Source: Candidatus Aenigmatarchaeota archaeon
GTDB taxonomy: Archaea; Aenigmatarchaeota; Aenigmatarchaeia; PWEA01; JACQIF01
Direction of reading: 5' to 3'
NCBI GenBank assembly: GCA_016432325.1
Contig: CP066684.1
Span: 329,018 to 393,017, forward strand
DNA length: 64,000 nucleotides
Shown: positions 3,362 to 62,011 of the stretch, in pieces
How positions within the stretch are numbered: position 1 is the first letter of the stretch
How the letters are laid out: every line of letters begins with the position of its first letter
Position numbers and translations under genes: made by a program
Notes under the pieces: generated by a model
What the model saw: the letters and a program-made list of their open reading frames with translations, nothing else
Told to the model about the DNA's origin: nothing
Databases searched by the model: none

Positions 3362-4366
3362 ATGAAAACGCCCGTTCTTATAATCGGCGGAAGCGGCTTC
3401 CTCGGAGGCCATCTCTCGGCAGCGTTAAGGTCCCGGGGGATTGACACGAAGGTCGTCGACGTGGTCCCGTCCGAGGGCTACATCCGCGGAGACGTCAGGG
3501 ACTACAAGACAGTCCTGGAACTCACCCGCGATGCGGGAACCGTATTCCACCTTGCAGGCGAGCTGCCTCCCCACGGCTGGTCCAAGGGCAAGAAAGGCCA
3601 GATGTGGGACATAATGGTCAACGGCACGGAGAACGTGCTCAAAGCGTCTCTGGAAAACAAGGTCAAAAAGGTCGTCTACCTGTCCAGCTCGGCCGTCTAT
3701 GGCGTGCCGCTGCAAACGCCTGTCTCTGAAAACGCTCCAAAGAAACCGCTGGACGAATACGGCCGCGCAAAGCTGCGGGCCGAGGAGCTGTGTCTCGCGT
3801 ACGCGTCAAAAGGCCTCGACGTGACGATGATACGCCCGATGACGATTCTCGGGGAGGGGTTTGTCGGCATTCTGCGCGCCGTCATGGAGTTTATCTGCAG
3901 CGGCAAGCCCGTCTACATCCTGGGAAGCGGCAAAAACAGCATTCAGATGGTTCACGTGGACGACATCGTCCGGGGTTGCCTGCTGGCCGCGGACAAGGGA
4001 CGCGCCGGAGAGGCCTACAACATGGCGGCCGGGGCGCCAATCCCCACGGTCAGGGAGGAGATGGAACACATGATAAAACACGCGGGAACGAAGTCCGGCG
4101 TGCGTCCGGTGCCCGCGTTCATCGTGCGGCCTGCGCTCGCCATGGTCAAGGCCGCGGGCGTGGCCGCCGTGGGAACCGAAGTGTACAACCTCGCGGACAA
4201 GACTTTCGTGCTTTCCACGGAGAAGGCCAGGCTCGAACTGGGGTGGAAACCGACGCGCGAGATGCTTGAGTCCCTAGACGAATCGTATGACTGGTACGCG
4301 AAAAACCGGAACGCCGTAAAGCCGACGTTGAGCCCGTGGCTCAGACTGGCGATGATGCTGCCCTGA
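3362..4366 (+). CDS. NAD-dependent sugar epimerase/dehydratase (SDR, UDP-glucose 4-epimerase-like)
   Basis: GGSGFLG Rossmann motif, YxxxK region, 334 aa; TATA ~3336. Confidence 0.8.
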   Translation: MKTPVLIIGGSGFLGGHLSAALRSRGIDTKVVDVVPSEGYIRGDVRDYKTVLELTRDAGTVFHLAGELPPHGWSKGKKGQMWDIMVNGTENVLKASLENKVKKVVYLSSSAVYGVPLQTPVSENAPKKPLDEYGRAKLRAEELCLAYASKGLDVTMIRPMTILGEGFVGILRAVMEFICSGKPVYILGSGKNSIQMVHVDDIVRGCLLAADKGRAGEAYNMAAGAPIPTVREEMEHMIKHAGTKSGVRPVPAFIVRPALAMVKAAGVAAVGTEVYNLADKTFVLSTEKARLELGWKPTREMLESLDESYDWYAKNRNAVKPTLSPWLRLAMMLP

Positions 4367-5245: not shown

Positions 5246-6787
5246 CTACGTGTCGCGCACGTAACGCCCAAGAACTCTGCGGGCGGCCGCGAACAGACCG
5301 CGGCCCACCGTGGCCTTGTTCGAGAGATATTCCAGCACGCGGAGATCCTCCTTCCTGTAGAAGCGCAGGGGGATGAGCGCCAAGGCGTAGACGACTGACG
5401 CAACAGCCGCCCCGGCGGCTTGCCACGCGGCGCCTGCCGTAACATAGTTCACTGCCAGGAGGGTTGCGGCGAATATCGACGTAGCGATGGCAATCTTGAA
5501 AAGCGCCCAAAGGTCAAGATTTACGCCCAGCCGCCGTTTCACGTAGACGGCGTTTGCCACGAAGAAAACCAGCGTGGCTCCCAGATAGGACCATGCCATC
5601 CCGAACTCGGCAAAACGCATCGTCAACGGCACGGCCAGCAGCAGGAACGCCACCAACGCCAGTATCGTTATGTTGCGGCTCGCGACTGGCCTGCGCATCG
5701 CATATATTGTAGTGTTAATCATCCCTCCGATTCCCAGCAGGAAGACGGCTATCGATATGAACGGCAGAAGCCTGGCCGCGGGGAGATATGCGGGGCTTGC
5801 AAAGAACAGTATGACCGTTTCCGACAGAACCAGCAGCAGCGCTATCGCAGGCATAGTTATGAACGCGGCGTACCTGATCACTATGTTCAGCAGTTCCGTT
5901 TGCCTGGCGCGTCCACCCTTCTCCGCAGAGAGCCCGGACGCGATTGGAAAGAGGGCCGCCGTGAGCACTCCGGGTATCGATATGAGCGGCGAAGTCAGCG
6001 TAATGCCTACCGCAAAAAGACCAGTGGCCACGGAACCGGCCACACTGTTGAGCACGATGTTCGGCGTGTTGGAAAATCCCAGCATGGCTATGCTGGCCGC
6101 GAATGCGGAAAGGGAGTAGGTGAACACCTCCTTGCCGTTGGGGGCGACGGAATCTTTTCTGAAAGCCATCATCAGCGTGTCGCCGCGCATGCATACGACA
6201 ACAAGCACGCTCGACAGGAGACCGGCCAGGGGTCCGAAATATTCGAAGCCCGCGAGCACGAGCGCGACAGCTACGACCAGCTTCGACACGTTGCCCGCGA
6301 AATTCGAGATGAGAACTCTCTTCATCGACTGGAGACCGTAAAGAACGGCCGTCGTCAGTCCCAGCATGGCGAACAGAACCACGCCTGCCGCGACCAGCGC
6401 TATCGTACCGACAGGCAGGTTCAGTATCGGCGCGAAGGTGCCCGCGAAAAATACAAGAACAGCGGCGATGGCCATGCTTGTCGTTGCGGCGACTTTCAGC
6501 GACAACCTGACGATGCCGTGCGTCCTCTTCGGTTTCCTTATTCTGTCGTATTCTGAGACCATTTTGGAGAGAGTCGTCTGCAGACCCAGAAGCGCCAGAC
6601 CCGACAGGAGTATCATCATGCTTATGGCGGTGGCGACAACGCCGTAGGCCCCGCTGTCAAGCGTCTTGGCCATGAAAAGCCAGAAAATCAGGGAGAAGAC
6701 GGTTGTCGTCATCCAGTCGAGGAACAGATAGGCCGAGTTTCCTACGAGTCGCTTTCCTTCTGCCATGCGCTTCACCAACATCTGCAT
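5246..6787 (-). CDS. Wzx-like oligosaccharide flippase (MOP superfamily polysaccharide biosynthesis protein)
   Basis: 513 aa, ~14 TM, polysaccharide-biosynthesis-protein N-terminal signature. Confidence 0.75.
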   Translation of the reverse strand: MQMLVKRMAEGKRLVGNSAYLFLDWMTTTVFSLIFWLFMAKTLDSGAYGVVATAISMMILLSGLALLGLQTTLSKMVSEYDRIRKPKRTHGIVRLSLKVAATTSMAIAAVLVFFAGTFAPILNLPVGTIALVAAGVVLFAMLGLTTAVLYGLQSMKRVLISNFAGNVSKLVVAVALVLAGFEYFGPLAGLLSSVLVVVCMRGDTLMMAFRKDSVAPNGKEVFTYSLSAFAASIAMLGFSNTPNIVLNSVAGSVATGLFAVGITLTSPLISIPGVLTAALFPIASGLSAEKGGRARQTELLNIVIRYAAFITMPAIALLLVLSETVILFFASPAYLPAARLLPFISIAVFLLGIGGMINTTIYAMRRPVASRNITILALVAFLLLAVPLTMRFAEFGMAWSYLGATLVFFVANAVYVKRRLGVNLDLWALFKIAIATSIFAATLLAVNYVTAGAAWQAAGAAVASVVYALALIPLRFYRKEDLRVLEYLSNKATVGRGLFAAARRVLGRYVRDT

Positions 6788-6863
6788 GATGGAATCGAAA
6801 TCTCAATTTCATGGTCTCCCGTTGGGAGATTTGGAATAGCAATTTCATGTTCGGCCATGCGCG

Positions 6864-7853
6864 CTACACCTTTTTCGTCCAGTTTCCTGCCGCGCGGAAC
6901 GGGTTGCCCACGTATAACGTCAGGTAAGAGAGCCCACCCCGCCGCGGAACAGAGACGCGGTCGCGGTTGAGCACGAACTCCGTCAAGCCGCGCAGCGTCG
7001 AGAGGACGAACTCCGGATTGCCGTCGATTATGGTCTGCTTCATCGATTTGACGGCATCGAACGCGAGCATGAAAGGCAGCACCAGCGCGAAGTCCGCCAC
7101 GCGCAGGTTCCTCCAGTACGTGAGATATTTGTTGCGCGCTATAAGCTTCTGCTTGCCCGCGTGGGCGTTGTTGGCCGTGAGAGACGCGGAGCCCTTGTGG
7201 TAGATTATCGATTTGGGGGCATATACAATCCTGAATCCCGCGTTGTGGGTCCGCCACGCAAGGTCCAGGTCCTCGAAGAAGAGTCCGTAGTACGGAGGGA
7301 ATATTTCCTTCAGCTCGTCGAGCACGCGCCTCGGAAACGCGAAGCACCCGCCTGTCGCGCATGCCAGTTCCGTCACATCGCGATGGAAGATTCCCTTCAC
7401 CATCTCCTCGTTCACGAGCGTTCCGTAGAAGGTCAGGGTTCCTCCAACCGGTTGGACCTCTTCGGTAGGACCGTTGACCCACGACCTGACCTGCGGCACG
7501 ACGCAGCCGATGCGCGCGTCGCGCGAGAAAGCGGCCATCACTTCTTTCAGCGCGTCTCTGTCAACTATCATATCGTTGTTCATGAAAAGCACGTACTCGC
7601 CTTTTGCGAATGGGAATCCGTAGTTCATGCCGCCGCATATGGCGATATTCGGGTACACGCGCTTGAGCACGACGTTGTCCATCCCGAGCTTCCCGACGCC
7701 GTTCTTGAGCTTCAGGTAGTCCTCTTCGGTAGAACCGTTGTCCACGACAATAACCTCGAAGTCGCCGAACGTCTGGCTCTTCATCGATTCCAGGCATTGC
7801 AGAGTGTGTTCAGAGGTATTCCATGATAGCATGAGTACGCTGAGCTTTGGCAT
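6864..7853 (-). CDS. Glycosyltransferase family 2
   Basis: VLMLSWNTSEHT...VIVVDNGS...DxD GT-A motifs. Confidence 0.8.
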   Translation of the reverse strand: MPKLSVLMLSWNTSEHTLQCLESMKSQTFGDFEVIVVDNGSTEEDYLKLKNGVGKLGMDNVVLKRVYPNIAICGGMNYGFPFAKGEYVLFMNNDMIVDRDALKEVMAAFSRDARIGCVVPQVRSWVNGPTEEVQPVGGTLTFYGTLVNEEMVKGIFHRDVTELACATGGCFAFPRRVLDELKEIFPPYYGLFFEDLDLAWRTHNAGFRIVYAPKSIIYHKGSASLTANNAHAGKQKLIARNKYLTYWRNLRVADFALVLPFMLAFDAVKSMKQTIIDGNPEFVLSTLRGLTEFVLNRDRVSVPRRGGLSYLTLYVGNPFRAAGNWTKKV

Positions 7854-10416: not shown

Positions 10417-11725
10417 GGAAAAAAAGAGGCAGCTCTTCGAACTGCTCAAAGAGATAGCGAAAGAGAGGAACGCGCAGAAGCGATTCGCCCCAGGGGAAAC
10501 GCTGGTACAGTATTCGGGAGACCTCGTGGACGAGAAGGAGCTCATAGCCGCCGTGGACTCTCTGATAGGGGGAAGGCTCGCGTTCGGCCAGAAGGTCGAG
10601 GAGTTCGAGAAGGAATTCGCTTCTTATCTCGGCGCCAATGAGGCCATTGCCGTCAGCACGGGTTCAGACGCCTGTCTCCTCGCGATGCAGACCATGATGA
10701 ACAAGCACATCGACAACCCGATAAAACCCGGCGACGAGGTTGTCGTTTGCGCCCTGAACTTCGCGACTCCTGTCAGTTCCCTGGTATTCAGCGGCCTTAC
10801 GCCCGTCTTCGTGGACACCACGCTGGGCAACTACACCATCAACACAGACCTGATAGAGGACGCCATAACGGACAAGACCCGAATGATCATAGCAACGCAC
10901 CTTTTCGGAAACGTTGCCGGCATGAAGAAGATAATGGAACTGTCCAAGAAACACAACCTGCGCGTCCTGGAGGACTGCTGCGACGCTCATGGTTCAATGT
11001 ACGGCGACAGGCAGGTCGGTTCGATGGGAGACGCCGGAGCGTTCTCGTTCTATCCGGCTCATGGAATGACGATGGGAGGCGAGGGAGGCATCATATCGAC
11101 CAGTGACGAGGCGCTGGCGTATACGGCCCGTTCAATCCGCATGTGGGGCCGCGCCCTTCCGTGCAAGTACTGCGGCAACGACCTGTCGAAGGAGTGCAAG
11201 CTCAAACACAATCTCGACTTGGCCGGAATGGAGGACTACGACATAAACTATCTATTCGTCAATCTCGGATTCAACTCGAAGATAACCGAAGTGCAGGGAG
11301 CGTTCGGCATAGAACAGCTGAGGAAACTGAACGCGTTCAACAGGATAAGAGAAGACAACTTCAATTTCGTAGTGAAGGCTCTCAAGCCGTACGAAGACGT
11401 CCTGATACTCCCCGAAGCGACGCCCGGTTCCAAGCCGGCATGGTATAACATCCCGCTCACGATAAGAAAGGGTGCAGCGTTCACCCGCAAAGATATCCTC
11501 GACACGCTGAAGAAGGCCAGGATAGAATACAGGAACCTTTTCGCCGGGAACATCCTGAGACAGCCCGGCTACAAGAATATCAAGCACAGGGTCGCGAGTT
11601 CCCTGGAGAACGCGGATTTCACGACAGACAACTCCTTCTTCGTGGGATGTTATCAGGGAATGACTCCCGAGATGCGCGACCACATGGTGCAGACCATCAC
11701 GCGTTTCCTGGACTCGCGCAGGTGA
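10409..11725 (+). CDS. ddhC: CDP-6-deoxy-D-xylo-4-hexulose-3-dehydrase (E1, DdhC/RfbH-like; DegT family with His replacing PLP-Lys)
   Basis: 438 aa DegT-fold; SFYPAHGMTMGGEGG (His in Lys position); Cys cluster EDCCD...CKYCGNDLSKEC resembling E1 [2Fe-2S] ligands. Confidence 0.8.
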   Translation: MLEEKKRQLFELLKEIAKERNAQKRFAPGETLVQYSGDLVDEKELIAAVDSLIGGRLAFGQKVEEFEKEFASYLGANEAIAVSTGSDACLLAMQTMMNKHIDNPIKPGDEVVVCALNFATPVSSLVFSGLTPVFVDTTLGNYTINTDLIEDAITDKTRMIIATHLFGNVAGMKKIMELSKKHNLRVLEDCCDAHGSMYGDRQVGSMGDAGAFSFYPAHGMTMGGEGGIISTSDEALAYTARSIRMWGRALPCKYCGNDLSKECKLKHNLDLAGMEDYDINYLFVNLGFNSKITEVQGAFGIEQLRKLNAFNRIREDNFNFVVKALKPYEDVLILPEATPGSKPAWYNIPLTIRKGAAFTRKDILDTLKKARIEYRNLFAGNILRQPGYKNIKHRVASSLENADFTTDNSFFVGCYQGMTPEMRDHMVQTITRFLDSRR

Positions 11726-59765: not shown

Positions 59766-60374
59766 ATGGACGTACTTGACGCTATCCAGAAAAGGCGCTC
59801 TGTCACGGAGTTCCAGGAAAAGAAGGTGGAAATGGAGAAGGTAGGAGTCCTTCTGGAAGCGATACGATGGGCTCCTTCTGCCGGCAACAGGCAGCCATGG
59901 GAAGTCGTCGTTATCGATGACCGGAAAACCATAGAGGATCTCGCGGATATCGCCCACAACCAACATTGGTTAAAGAAGGCGCCTCTGGTCATGGTGGTCT
60001 GCATCAACCACAAGCTGGCCGAAGGGACCTTCGGTGTCCGCGGAAAGAACCTTTACGCCATCCAGGCCACGGCCACGGCCGCCGAGAATGCGATGCTCAC
60101 GGCGACCGAACTGGGACTGGGAACGTGCTGGATTGACGTCTACGATGAAGAGAAGGCGTCACGGCTTCTGGCCTGTCCCAAGCACACTGTGCCTGTGATT
60201 GCGTTGGCCGTCGGATATCCGCTGGCTGTCCCAAAGCCTCCTCCCCGCTATGAGATAGCGTCCTTCTCCTACTACAACGGCCACGGCAAGCTGCTCGAGT
60301 TCGAGTGGAAGGGCATTGCAGAGCACCTGAAAGAGTTCAAGGAGAGATTGCTGAAGAGCCTTGAGAAGTACTGA
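59766..60374 (+). CDS. Nitroreductase-family flavoprotein
   Basis: RRSVTEF...PSAGNRQPW nitroreductase motifs. Confidence 0.8.
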   Translation: MDVLDAIQKRRSVTEFQEKKVEMEKVGVLLEAIRWAPSAGNRQPWEVVVIDDRKTIEDLADIAHNQHWLKKAPLVMVVCINHKLAEGTFGVRGKNLYAIQATATAAENAMLTATELGLGTCWIDVYDEEKASRLLACPKHTVPVIALAVGYPLAVPKPPPRYEIASFSYYNGHGKLLEFEWKGIAEHLKEFKERLLKSLEKY

Positions 60375-60398
60375 AGACGGAACCGACGTCTGCTAAAA

Positions 60399-60488
60399 TC
60401 AGATGAAGACTGCTATAAGCATAACCATTATCCCGGCCAAGACCAAGAGCCTCTGGTTCTGCCTGGCGTACCAACCCATACTGTTCAT
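60399..60488 (-). other. Possible 29-aa hydrophobic peptide (MNSMGWYARQNQRLLVLAGIMVMLIAVFI)
   Basis: ATG ~35 nt from palindromic TATA at 60518-60527 on minus side. Confidence 0.15.
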
Positions 60489-60607
60489 AGGTCTCGCACT
60501 AGTTTAGTAAATGATAGTTATTTAAGCGCGTTGTGTCTGCTCCACAACGAATTGATAAGCCATTCTCTCGTGAACGCAGAATAGTAGGAAGGGCGTTCCA
60601 TACTTAC

Positions 60608-60753
60608 CTGCCTTGGGGTAGGTTGGGTAAATGATGGAAGGGGTTCTTCCATACTTACCTGCCTCGAATTAGGTTGGGTAAGTGATGGAAGGGCGGGGTG
60701 TGGGGTGGTAGAATAGGATCGATCCGCCCTTCCAGTGTGGGGGTGTGTCATTG
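60608..60753. repeat. Structured tandem repeat locus: 51-nt direct repeat (x2) of TTCCATACTTACCTGCC-N6-TAGGTTGGGTAARTGATGGAAGG, flanked by GGAAGGGCG...CGCCCTTCC inverted repeat
   Basis: Units at 60616-60661 and 60667-60712; GGAAGGG x3 direct plus 1 inverted copy; TATA TTATTTAAGC at 60518-60527. Confidence 0.6.
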
Positions 60754-60856
60754 AATGACAATGATGATGCGGTTTGTTCATTTTTCCGCATACACTGGAC
60801 ACACTTGATTCATCCCGTGCAAAATAACGGGATAGGAGCGTACAACATTCTGTACG

Positions 60857-60876
60857 CCCCTCGTTGAAACAATGGG
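60857..60876 (-). terminator. Putative ftsZ terminator hairpin followed by T-tract
   Basis: GCGTACA-acattc-TGTACGC directly after ftsZ stop; minus-strand reading continues into TTATTTT. Confidence 0.3.
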
Positions 60877-60877
60877 T

Positions 60878-62011
60878 TTACCTTATCATGGGTATTCCGA
60901 GGCTGTCGGAGTACGACACCGAGGAGCTCTCCCTGGTTTCCGCGCGGCCCAGCACGTACGGGCTCTTCACGCCGGTCACAATCGTTATGACCTGCACGCG
61001 GCCGTTGAACTCAGGCAGTACGCGCGCTCCCCAGATGACCTGCGCTTCAGGGTTGAGGTGCTTTATCACGTACTCTCCAATGGTGTTGATCTCTTCCAGC
61101 TTCAGGTCTTCTCCGCCGATGACCTGCACAATCGCCCCGTTGCCTCCTGCAATGTCCGCTTCGAGCAAGGGGTGCTTCAGGGCTTTTGCCACGGCCTGCG
61201 AGGCGCGTGCGCCAGAGTCGTCGTCTCCTATGCCTATCAGAGCTACGCCACCCGAGTGCATTATCGCCTTCACGTCAGCGTAGTCCAGGTTCACGAGCGA
61301 CGGCTGCGTTATGGTCTCTGTAAGACCCTTTATCATCGTCGATACGAGCTCGTCTGCGACAGCGAACGCCTGCTTTACGGGCAGGTCGCCTGCGTACTGC
61401 AGCAGCTTCTGGTTCTCTATCACGATTACCGTGTCTGCAGCCGCGCGGAGCCTTGAAAGGCCGTCTTCTGCCTTGTTTATGCGGGTTCCTTCCATCTTGA
61501 ACGGCATCGTCACCGTCGCTATTACGATGGCGCCCATCTGTTTCGCGATTTCGGCCACAACAGGCGCGCAACCCGTTCCTGTTCCGCCACCGAGCCCTGT
61601 CGTTATGAAGAGCATGTCGCAGCCGTCGAGGGCTTCCTTTATCTCGCGCCTGCTCTCCTCCGCGGCCTTGCGGCCTACCTCAGGATATCCTCCTGCTCCG
61701 AGACCCTTGGTAAGTTCCTTTCCTATCAGAATCTTCTTGTGGGCCTTTATCGAAGACAAGTGTCTGGCGTCTGTGTTCAGCGCTATCGTGGACGCTCCTG
61801 ATATTCCCATTTCGGTAAGCGTGTTTATCGTGTTTGAACCGCCGCCTCCGCAACCCGCAACAAGTATGCGTGCCTGGTGCATCTCGAGTCCGAACTCCTC
61901 GCTTATCTTCTGGGCGTCAGAGCCTGTCGGTCCGCCTGCCAGAGAAGCCTGCTTCTGTGTTCCAGCGGCGCCGAATGTTTTTTCGAATGCGTTCTGTATT
62001 ATTGAATCCAT
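60878..62011 (-). CDS. ftsZ: Cell division GTPase FtsZ
   Basis: GGGTGTG tubulin motif, GLGAGGYPEVGRKAAEES; SD GGAGGGAGGA ~8 nt upstream. Confidence 0.9.
   Translation of the reverse strand: MDSIIQNAFEKTFGAAGTQKQASLAGGPTGSDAQKISEEFGLEMHQARILVAGCGGGGSNTINTLTEMGISGASTIALNTDARHLSSIKAHKKILIGKELTKGLGAGGYPEVGRKAAEESRREIKEALDGCDMLFITTGLGGGTGTGCAPVVAEIAKQMGAIVIATVTMPFKMEGTRINKAEDGLSRLRAAADTVIVIENQKLLQYAGDLPVKQAFAVADELVSTMIKGLTETITQPSLVNLDYADVKAIMHSGGVALIGIGDDDSGARASQAVAKALKHPLLEADIAGGNGAIVQVIGGEDLKLEEINTIGEYVIKHLNPEAQVIWGARVLPEFNGRVQVITIVTGVKSPYVLGRAETRESSSVSYSDSLGIPMIR

Follow-up and report, generated by a model that had tools for sequence, protein, structure and literature searches.

The window analyzed here comprises 64,000 nucleotides (nt) from Candidatus Aenigmatarchaeota archaeon (assembly GCA_016432325.1, contig CP066684.1, positions 329,018 to 393,017 of the forward strand); to judge from its FtsZ, the source organism is indeed a member of the Candidatus Aenigmatarchaeota, i.e. 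a DPANN archaeon. The division gene ftsZ and a nitroreductase-like gene on the opposite strand flank a gap (Table 1) in a region with a GC content of 0.46-0.50. This gap had been described, from the letters of the sequence, as a repeat-rich and highly structured noncoding locus, and as a candidate for either a noncoding RNA or an element resembling a miniature inverted-repeat transposable element (MITE). We find that the locus adjoining the 3' end of ftsZ is structured, noncoding and probably functions at the RNA level, as proposed in this original prediction, and that its core (60686-60759) is a strongly conserved, predicted RNA motif of ~75 nt on the minus strand, i.e. in the sense of ftsZ. 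Judged by Rfam 15 and by the literature searched, this ftsZ-linked motif has not been described before. Specifically, the locus matches no known RNA family: there were 0 Rfam 15 matches at gathering score in the whole window, and the best scores in permissive scans of the window region and of two related loci (L007 and L001) were 12-24 bits against thresholds of 36-90, i.e. at the level of chance. No tRNA or tmRNA was detected in the region, and literature searches returned no description of an ftsZ 3' element in archaea.

Table 1. Features in and around the gap downstream of ftsZ, in window positions
Feature	Position	Strand	Remarks
ftsZ	60878-62011	minus	Open reading frame (ORF); homologs with Tubulin/FtsZ_C domains; stop codon 60878-60880; the element follows its 3' end
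Gap between ftsZ and the nitroreductase-like gene	60375-60877		503 bp
H1 hairpin	60834-60861	minus	Just 3' of the ftsZ stop codon; GGGGCGUACA...UGUACGCUCC; inverted repeat
H2 hairpin	60813-60832	minus	UCCCGU...ACGGGA; compensatory changes in L081 and L082
H3 hairpin	60767-60791	minus	AUGCGG...CCGCAU; seen in folds
P1, 5-bp hairpin/palindrome	60747-60759	minus	GUCAUUCAAUGAC; GUCAUUCGAUGAC in most relatives; 5/5 stem pairs never vary
C-rich single-stranded linker, invariant	60735-60746	minus	ACACCCCCACAC (plus strand GTGTGGGGGTGT); invariant columns in alignment A3
P2, 11-bp helix	60686-60734	minus	UGGAAGGGCGG (60734-60724) with CCGCCCUUCCA (60696-60686); 100% complementary
Two 51-nt tandem units, each a hairpin	60596-60697	minus	Window-specific; absent in L081, L082 and L161
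Distal CGCCCUUCC copy	60587-60595	minus	Alternative 3' partner for the P2 5' arm
TATA-like box	60518-60527	minus	GCTTAAATAA on the minus strand; 29 nt upstream of the small-ORF ATG (60488)
29-amino acid membrane-peptide ORF	60399-60488	minus	MNSMGWYARQNQRLLVLAGIMVMLIAVFI; conserved downstream partner of ftsZ and the element
Nitroreductase-like gene	59766-60374	plus

A conserved motif directly downstream of ftsZ

Read in the sense of ftsZ, the core consists of P1 (GUCAUUCRAUGAC), the C-rich linker ACACCCCCACAC, the P2 helix with a variable loop, and a pyrimidine- or U-rich tail. The linker is unpaired in sense-strand folds and is extended by 1-3 nucleotides in some loci. P2 pairs a purine with a pyrimidine strand and has the consensus GGGAAGGGCGG/CCGCCCUUUCC across loci; the window copy folds with -20.8 kcal/mol (z -5.0), and the versions folded span -20.8 to -26.5 kcal/mol. 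The P2 loop has a length of 27 nt in the window, where it contains the recurrent ACCACCCCA (60709-60701), and of 8-51 nt among loci, where it often ends in the same sequence. The tail that follows is pyrimidine-rich and often reads UUUUUAC(C/U)CC. Several parts of this architecture had been noticed before, including the near-palindrome corresponding to P1 (plus strand GTCATTGAATGAC), the three copies of GGAAGGG (60587, 60636 and 60687) and the inverted CCGCCCTTCC at 60724-60733. By contrast, the 10-bp terminal inverted pair that was placed at 60608-60616 and 60744-60753 has the wrong coordinates; the true arms, a perfect match over 11 nt, are at 60686-60696 and 60724-60734, and 60587-60595 could serve in place of the former. 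In fold predictions, the region beats shuffled sequences on both strands (z -4.7 on the plus and -10.0 on the minus strand).

To place the motif among relatives, we used 80 species-representative loci and 3 close relatives obtained via FtsZ homologs, 7 more relative loci, and metagenome contigs bearing a 17-mer of the core. FtsZ identity to the window is 90% in L081, 87% in L082 and 72% in L083, and L081, L082 and L161 served as the closest relatives for locus comparison. At the DNA level (blastn/nhmmer), conservation within the gap is limited to ~40 nt (60723-60765) that are always directly downstream of ftsZ. A covariance model (R1) built from a trimmed, gap-free alignment of 16 sequences (A3) gives matches at E<1e-3 only ~0-190 nt 3' of the ftsZ stop codon and on the ftsZ strand (93 sources, 724 kb), and it matches all 7/7 additional FtsZ-relative loci. 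Altogether, the motif is placed in about 30 loci by the model, and every examined member of one Candidatus Aenigmatarchaeota clade has it directly 3' of ftsZ. The motif is nearly invariant while FtsZ itself falls to ~63-70% identity. In L007, the motif begins 2 nt past the ftsZ stop codon; because only these 2 nt separate the two, it must lie on the ftsZ transcript in this locus.

The metagenome scan with the core 17-mer returned 98 loci, only 9 of which are true homologs; all of these share the same architecture, and the other loci are chance matches or an unrelated repeat from moss-associated metagenomes. In this repeat, the 17-mer GTGTGGGGGTGTGTCAT lies inside ...TTTCAAGGAGTGTGGGGGTGTGTCAT, which recurs in many contigs of a handful of metagenome projects (L098, L100, L102, L103, L107, L108, L112 and others; contigs Ga0116226-Ga0116231, Ga0209208 and Ga0209611) and looks like a eukaryotic dispersed repeat that is unrelated to the archaeal element.

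Divergent versions were observed in two groups. L010-L013 have no P1 and instead carry 2-4 tandem ACACCCC(C) repeats, variable in number, ~25-60 nt after the ftsZ stop codon, as well as an exact anti-Shine-Dalgarno-like UCACCUCC before P2; here, one A-U pair of P2 is gone on both sides compared with the main group. In more distant relatives, weak model matches (E about 0.2) were found in L040 (5125-5235) and L044 (2432-2545). L040 has a classic hairpin with UUUUUUAUUUUUU right at the ftsZ stop codon, ahead of the weak matches, and several modules of a hairpin with CACACCCC after it. The version in L040 and L044 may be a diverged form that is transcribed separately.

The motif does not behave as coding sequence. 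A read-through extension of FtsZ was rejected, as the core is found in all three frames relative to ftsZ and stop codons intervene in most loci; the frame from ftsZ to the core is open only in L005 and L007. A 94-amino acid ORF on the minus strand (60518-60802) is present, as noted originally, and was likewise dropped as a coding candidate on account of the many stops and of the unconserved frame between ftsZ and the core.

Covariation supports P2 as an RNA helix. All P2 cells in A3 are paired (100%), as are 97.3% over 26 distinct sequences. Covariation is seen at 3-4 pairs, with a score that is reached by 0/500 shuffles, and three positions alternate between the pair types GC/UA/AU, GU/GC/AU and GC/AU/CG/GU. 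P1 and the C-tract never vary, and covariation therefore says nothing about their pairing or single-strandedness. The strand is indicated by an asymmetry of wobble pairs: in the A4 alignment, there are 22 G.U cells on the ftsZ strand vs 4 A.C cells, and the same bias is found in H1 (window, L081 and L082), in the first tandem unit and in degenerate second copies of P1. Based on this asymmetry together with the position of the motif, we infer that the RNA of the element reads on the minus strand.

These data also bear on whether the block acts as DNA, i.e. as an operator (GTCAT-N3-ATGAC), as a replication origin box (TTCCAGTG...GGGGGTG), or as a G-quadruplex or polypurine tract that stalls polymerase. 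P1 is palindromic with invariant arms, P2 is a polypurine/polypyrimidine tract flanked by G-runs, and CTTCCAGTGTGGGGGTG on the plus strand bears a superficial likeness to archaeal origin recognition boxes (ORBs), all of which would fit such a function. However, the compensatory changes in P2 and the strand-specific wobble pairs point to RNA. Moreover, the 64 kb contain the block only once, an inverted partner box and an AT-rich unwinding region are both absent, its CAGTG/CGGTG part varies among relatives, and its half-dyad is separated from the G-string by 2-4 nt and not by about 10. We consider a DNA-level function to be very unlikely. Archaeal origins contain several ORB or mini-ORB repeats, some of them inverted, around an AT-rich unwinding element and usually lie beside orc1/cdc6; an origin was rejected here because of the one motif copy in 64 kb, the lack of an AT-rich stretch and the RNA-type covariation.

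Tandem units, small ORF and flanking hairpins

The 51-nt tandem direct repeat that first drew attention to the gap is present in 1.9 copies (60596-60693, 89% matches, Tandem Repeats Finder score 161). Each unit does fold as a hairpin, as noted originally; its stem has ~14 bp with a one-base bulge, and the folding energies are -15 to -24 kcal/mol (z -3 to -6). The units differ from each other at five positions, four in the apical loop and one in the stem, and the stem difference stays paired, as G.U, on the minus strand only. The minimum-energy fold of 60587-60736 on this strand has -52.5 kcal/mol (z -6.4); in this fold, 60733-60725 pairs with the distal copy at 60595-60587, enclosing both unit hairpins. 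In L081, L082 and L161, the layout is ...AATAGT-GGAAGGGCGG-(C)GTGGGGTGGTAGAAG...CCGCCCTTCC-AGTGTGGGGGTGTGTCATTGAATGAC, with one GGAAGGGCGG and zero units. Compared with these relatives, the window has ~100 extra bases between its two GGAAGGGCG copies. Each unit can be aligned over its 3' half (TAGGTTGGGTAARTGATGGAAGGG) with the sequence that these relatives have ahead of the hairpin (TAGGTTGCGGAAATTAGTGGAAGGG; flank TAGGTTGCGGAAATTAGTGGAAGGGCGG), and the stretch before the first unit is a third, weaker copy. The unit halves have no further match in the window, the part of the source genome that was searched (shuffles predict 0.04 and 0.00), and no copies of the unit were detected in 1.1 Mb of related loci or in metagenome and viral collections, nor by blastn in plasmids and phages. 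Because the units are absent in relatives, without further copies in the sequences searched and homologous to the local flank, the comparison indicates that they are a recent local tandem duplication of the P2-flanking segment, specific to the lineage of the window, rather than a mobile element or an independent gene. In the predicted fold, the duplication appears to have enlarged the conserved helix in its apical part, so that a closing helix of the P2 type now encloses two additional hairpins.

The proposal of a MITE-like element, i.e. that the units are one or two MITEs inserted with a 9-bp target-site duplication GGAAGGGCG, does account for some of these observations. As in MITEs, there are inverted repeats within each unit, the ~100-bp block lies between identical direct repeats, and the orthologous site is empty in L081, L082 and L161, although local duplication predicts the same. 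Unlike MITEs, the units lack dispersed copies in the window and in all collections searched, the supposed target-site duplication is part of the 51-nt period with the third GGAAGGG between the units, and the 3' half of the unit is homologous to a flank that pre-exists in the relatives. On these grounds, a MITE origin is extremely improbable. A single-copy unit without conservation or covariation in relatives had been named as evidence against a functional element, and this is what we find for the 51-nt repeat, while the neighboring 75-nt core shows both conservation and covariation.

Expansions of this kind recur. Tandem duplications of the whole element are present in L001 (5169-5238 and 5311-5418), L008 (5182-5228 and 5337-5415) and L004 (5129-5199 and 5206-5284), isolated extra copies of the GTCATYCGATGAC palindrome in L001, L003, L006 and L008, and hairpins nested inside the P2 loop in L001, L006 and L178. 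The recurrent duplications and nested hairpins mean that the site tolerates expansion. The tandem hairpins of the window are ordinary in themselves and show that the apical part of the helix can be expanded.

Further downstream on the same strand lies the 29-amino acid ORF, which was overlooked in the statement that the region holds no credible ORF; it is just outside the interval to which that statement referred. The predicted peptide has a basic N-terminus and a hydrophobic C-terminus, and its orthologs share the pattern ...GAL.LF.A.V.; no Pfam or NCBIfam family was matched. Orthologs are found downstream of ftsZ in L001-L013, L081 and L184-L189, all among the loci that carry the element, and a gene for a membrane peptide of 28-34 amino acids is usually next on the same strand after the element. 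The element and the small ORF are co-distributed; the element is present without a detected small ORF in L082, L083, L138 and L161, and the small ORF was not found in more distant relatives. The ORF could encode an unrecognized small membrane protein linked to cell division. In AT-rich relatives, it begins 20-35 nt after P2, often with a Shine-Dalgarno-like sequence. This spacing leaves no room for a promoter, and suggests that the small ORF is co-transcribed with ftsZ in these organisms.

The TATA-like sequence in the gap (TTATTTAAGC, 60518-60527) had been identified correctly and assigned to the structured region on the plus strand. We assign it to the small ORF instead. In L081, a ATTTAAATA box lies 30 nt upstream of the orthologous small ORF at a distance of 1.1 kb from the element, and a gene for an HTH_10 protein and other DNA lie between the element and the small ORF. 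Because the spacing persists and the box moves with the ORF in L081, the box belongs to the small ORF and not to the structured region, and we infer that it drives the small ORF on the minus strand. In the same locus (L081 6400-8165), ~1.7 kb separates the element from the nitroreductase gene, compared with only ~200 bp in the window, and this spacer contains the gene for the HTH_10 regulator (6512-7201) as well as the small ORF in its relocated position, preceded by a TATA of its own.

The assignment of the TATA box bears directly on the model put forward originally, in which a plus-strand noncoding RNA starts from this box, runs through the repeats and is antisense to the 3' end of ftsZ. The box exists and TATA boxes are nearly symmetric, the plus strand folds well too (z -4.7), and relatives have an A-rich stretch ahead of P2 that might pass for a TATA. 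Against this, the 22 to 4 asymmetry of G.U over A.C favors the minus strand, the box holds a spacing of 29-30 nt to the small ORF on the minus strand and moves with this ORF rather than with the element, and AT-rich relatives have the small ORF where the promoter would need to be. A plus-strand transcript of this type is therefore very doubtful.

Between ftsZ and the core, the window has three additional hairpins. H1, which had been noted as the hairpin adjoining ftsZ, is kept in L081 and L082, where the alifold consensus holds its pairs; its single mismatch, read from the sequence, is A.C on the plus strand and G.U on the minus strand. In H2, pairs 54-59 with 66-75 of the alifold consensus include three that are altered on both sides. 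At the site of H3, L081 and L082 have a hairpin of different sequence by eye (AGTAGGG/CCCTACT and GTAGGG/CCCCTAC).

A possible function in cis on the ftsZ mRNA

Based on these observations, we suggest a model in which the interval belongs to the ftsZ transcript, as its 3' untranslated or intercistronic part, the motif exerts its effect in cis on this mRNA, and the units are a duplication; as a whole, we regard this model as slightly more probable than all other readings taken together. The motif itself probably serves the ftsZ mRNA in cis, as an element at its 3' end or between cistrons. In this model, P2 and the U-rich tail would define or protect the 3' end of the mRNA and restrict read-through into the small ORF, and the invariant P1 and C-tract would serve as a recognition site for a putative trans-acting factor. 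As expected for an intrinsic terminator, P2 is in all loci a sense-strand stem rich in G+C that lies 0-190 nt past the stop codon of ftsZ.

Several observations weigh against this model, in particular against its simplest form in which P2 is a terminator. By our count, at least 4 U within ~12 nt after P2 are found in only roughly 11/21 distinct variants, and a U run is absent in the window, L081, L001, L004 and L174. Hairpin-plus-T sites occur at the level of shuffled sequences (21 vs 20.6 and 8 vs 6.6 in the window and L007, respectively); as such sites are not enriched, P2 is not simply of the local terminator type. The sequence invariance, as it appears in the alignments, exceeds what termination needs. 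The invariant P1 palindrome would fit a DNA-binding site equally well. In L040 and L044, a hairpin with U6 precedes the C-rich modules, which would fit a separate transcription unit there. Finally, Term-seq in four archaea showed terminators that consist of U-tracts and lack hairpins (PMC8716108).

The motif would belong to a known kind, the stem-loop elements at mRNA 3' ends or between cistrons, here in an archaeal phylum that has been little studied. With bacterial intrinsic terminators, the P2 helix shares its stability, its richness in G+C and its place on the sense strand just past the stop codon, and in many relatives UUUU(U) comes directly after it. However, P2 has a long loop of variable length (8-51 nt), its stem sequence and the preceding 25 nt hardly change, about half of the variants and the window itself have no U-tract, and the host is an archaeon, where the described terminators are hairpin-free U-tracts (PMC8716108). 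U-tracts are the known archaeal termination signal (PMC8716108). As in termination by U-tracts and aCPSF1 (FttA), the element ends a gene with a pyrimidine- or U-rich tail, but what it conserves is the hairpins and the C-tract and not the U-tract.

Bacterial intercistronic stem-loops that stabilize mRNA, such as the repetitive extragenic palindromic (REP) sequences in malEFG and the hairpins of the puf operon, are generic or dispersed repeats. The element resembles them as a stable hairpin that separates two cistrons of the same strand, the upstream one abundant and the downstream one small, plausibly for differential expression, but is single-copy, ftsZ-specific and invariant in sequence. In eukaryotes, the 3' stem-loop of histone mRNA is bound by SLBP. 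The likeness to this system is one of logic only, i.e. a short 3' stem-loop with invariant flanks on a cell-cycle-linked gene; there is no homology in sequence or structure, and the systems belong to different domains of life.

The main rival to the cis-acting model is a trans-acting small RNA that is, or is processed from, the ftsZ 3' untranslated region (UTR). In this scenario, the C-rich ACACCCCCACAC, the loop ACCACCCCA and the tail ACCCCC would either pair as seeds with G-rich Shine-Dalgarno regions or serve as decoys for a protein that binds C, and P2 would be a protective 3' hairpin. The RsaE/RoxS-type small RNAs of Firmicutes have C-rich seeds, and the element shares with them several unpaired CCCC motifs beside a terminator-like hairpin. 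Specifically, up to three unpaired C-rich motifs flank the stable hairpin, the third of which, in the tail, is found in some lineages only; L010-L013 have an exact anti-Shine-Dalgarno-like sequence at the same place; and the seed-like invariance is stronger than a plain terminator needs. By contrast with the RsaE/RoxS RNAs, the element is archaeal and lacks a promoter of its own, for which there is no room in L007, as well as identified targets. No target was found, and pairing with the ftsZ 5' UTR was negative, with duplexes no better than shuffles and cognate pairs similar to non-cognate ones (-15.9 vs -15.0 kcal/mol). Most duplexes between the element and the ftsZ Shine-Dalgarno region were in the range of shuffles (z -2.6 to +1.2), with four loci near -2. 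We consider this scenario unlikely.

An extended version of the cis-acting model would have a 3'-UTR stem-loop with anti-Shine-Dalgarno-like C-tracts that is bound by a specific protein or RNA, sets the stability and translation of the FtsZ mRNA, and couples ftsZ to the 29-amino acid peptide. This version is unlikely; if true, the motif would be the first cis-regulatory RNA described for a DPANN division gene, and the peptide might be a new FtsZ-associated membrane factor. To our knowledge, gene regulation in DPANN archaea is almost entirely unexplored, as is the post-transcriptional control of cell division in archaea. The motif offers a testable handle on how 3' ends are formed, on the stability of mRNA and on what may be a new division factor, and it would represent a hairpin-based 3' element in a domain whose terminators are thought to be hairpin-free. 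Its interest would rise if transcript mapping and binding showed control of the expression of FtsZ or of the small peptide.

Other RNA identities and observations elsewhere

A box C/D small RNA was considered for the plus strand because the C-box-like heptamer ATGATGA of the original prediction is present there (60761-60767). Such RNAs have a conserved C box (RUGAUGA) and D box (CUGA) that a terminal stem joins, along with C'/D' boxes and 12-nt guides. The heptamer is, however, restricted to the window and not conserved; already in the closest relatives its place is taken by AAGGATA, AAGGATC and AATGAGA, and the window heptamer has neither an in-register D box nor an Rfam C/D match near the gathering score. 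On the minus strand, cGAUGA is followed 12-14 nt on by CUGG or CCGG and not by CUGA, again with no significant Rfam C/D match, and the identity was rejected for both strands. K-turn, H/ACA, split-tRNA and small-riboswitch identities were dropped by eye, their defining boxes being absent.

Elsewhere in the window, ARAGORN called an 87-nt tRNA-Asp with the odd anticodon "atc" at 10597-10683 on the plus strand. The Rfam gathering scan of the whole 64-kb window detected no tRNA and no other RNA family. Either the call is a false positive, or the tRNA is atypical and perhaps contains an intron.

At the other end of ftsZ, many relatives have a TTTCGATAC-like box followed by an A/T-rich, TATA-like stretch. 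In L002, L003, L007, L009 and L011-L013, the box lies ~45-55 nt before the ftsZ ATG (locus coordinates ~3945-3960, with the ftsZ start at 4001). It has TTCGAT in common with P1, and may be a promoter or a regulator site.

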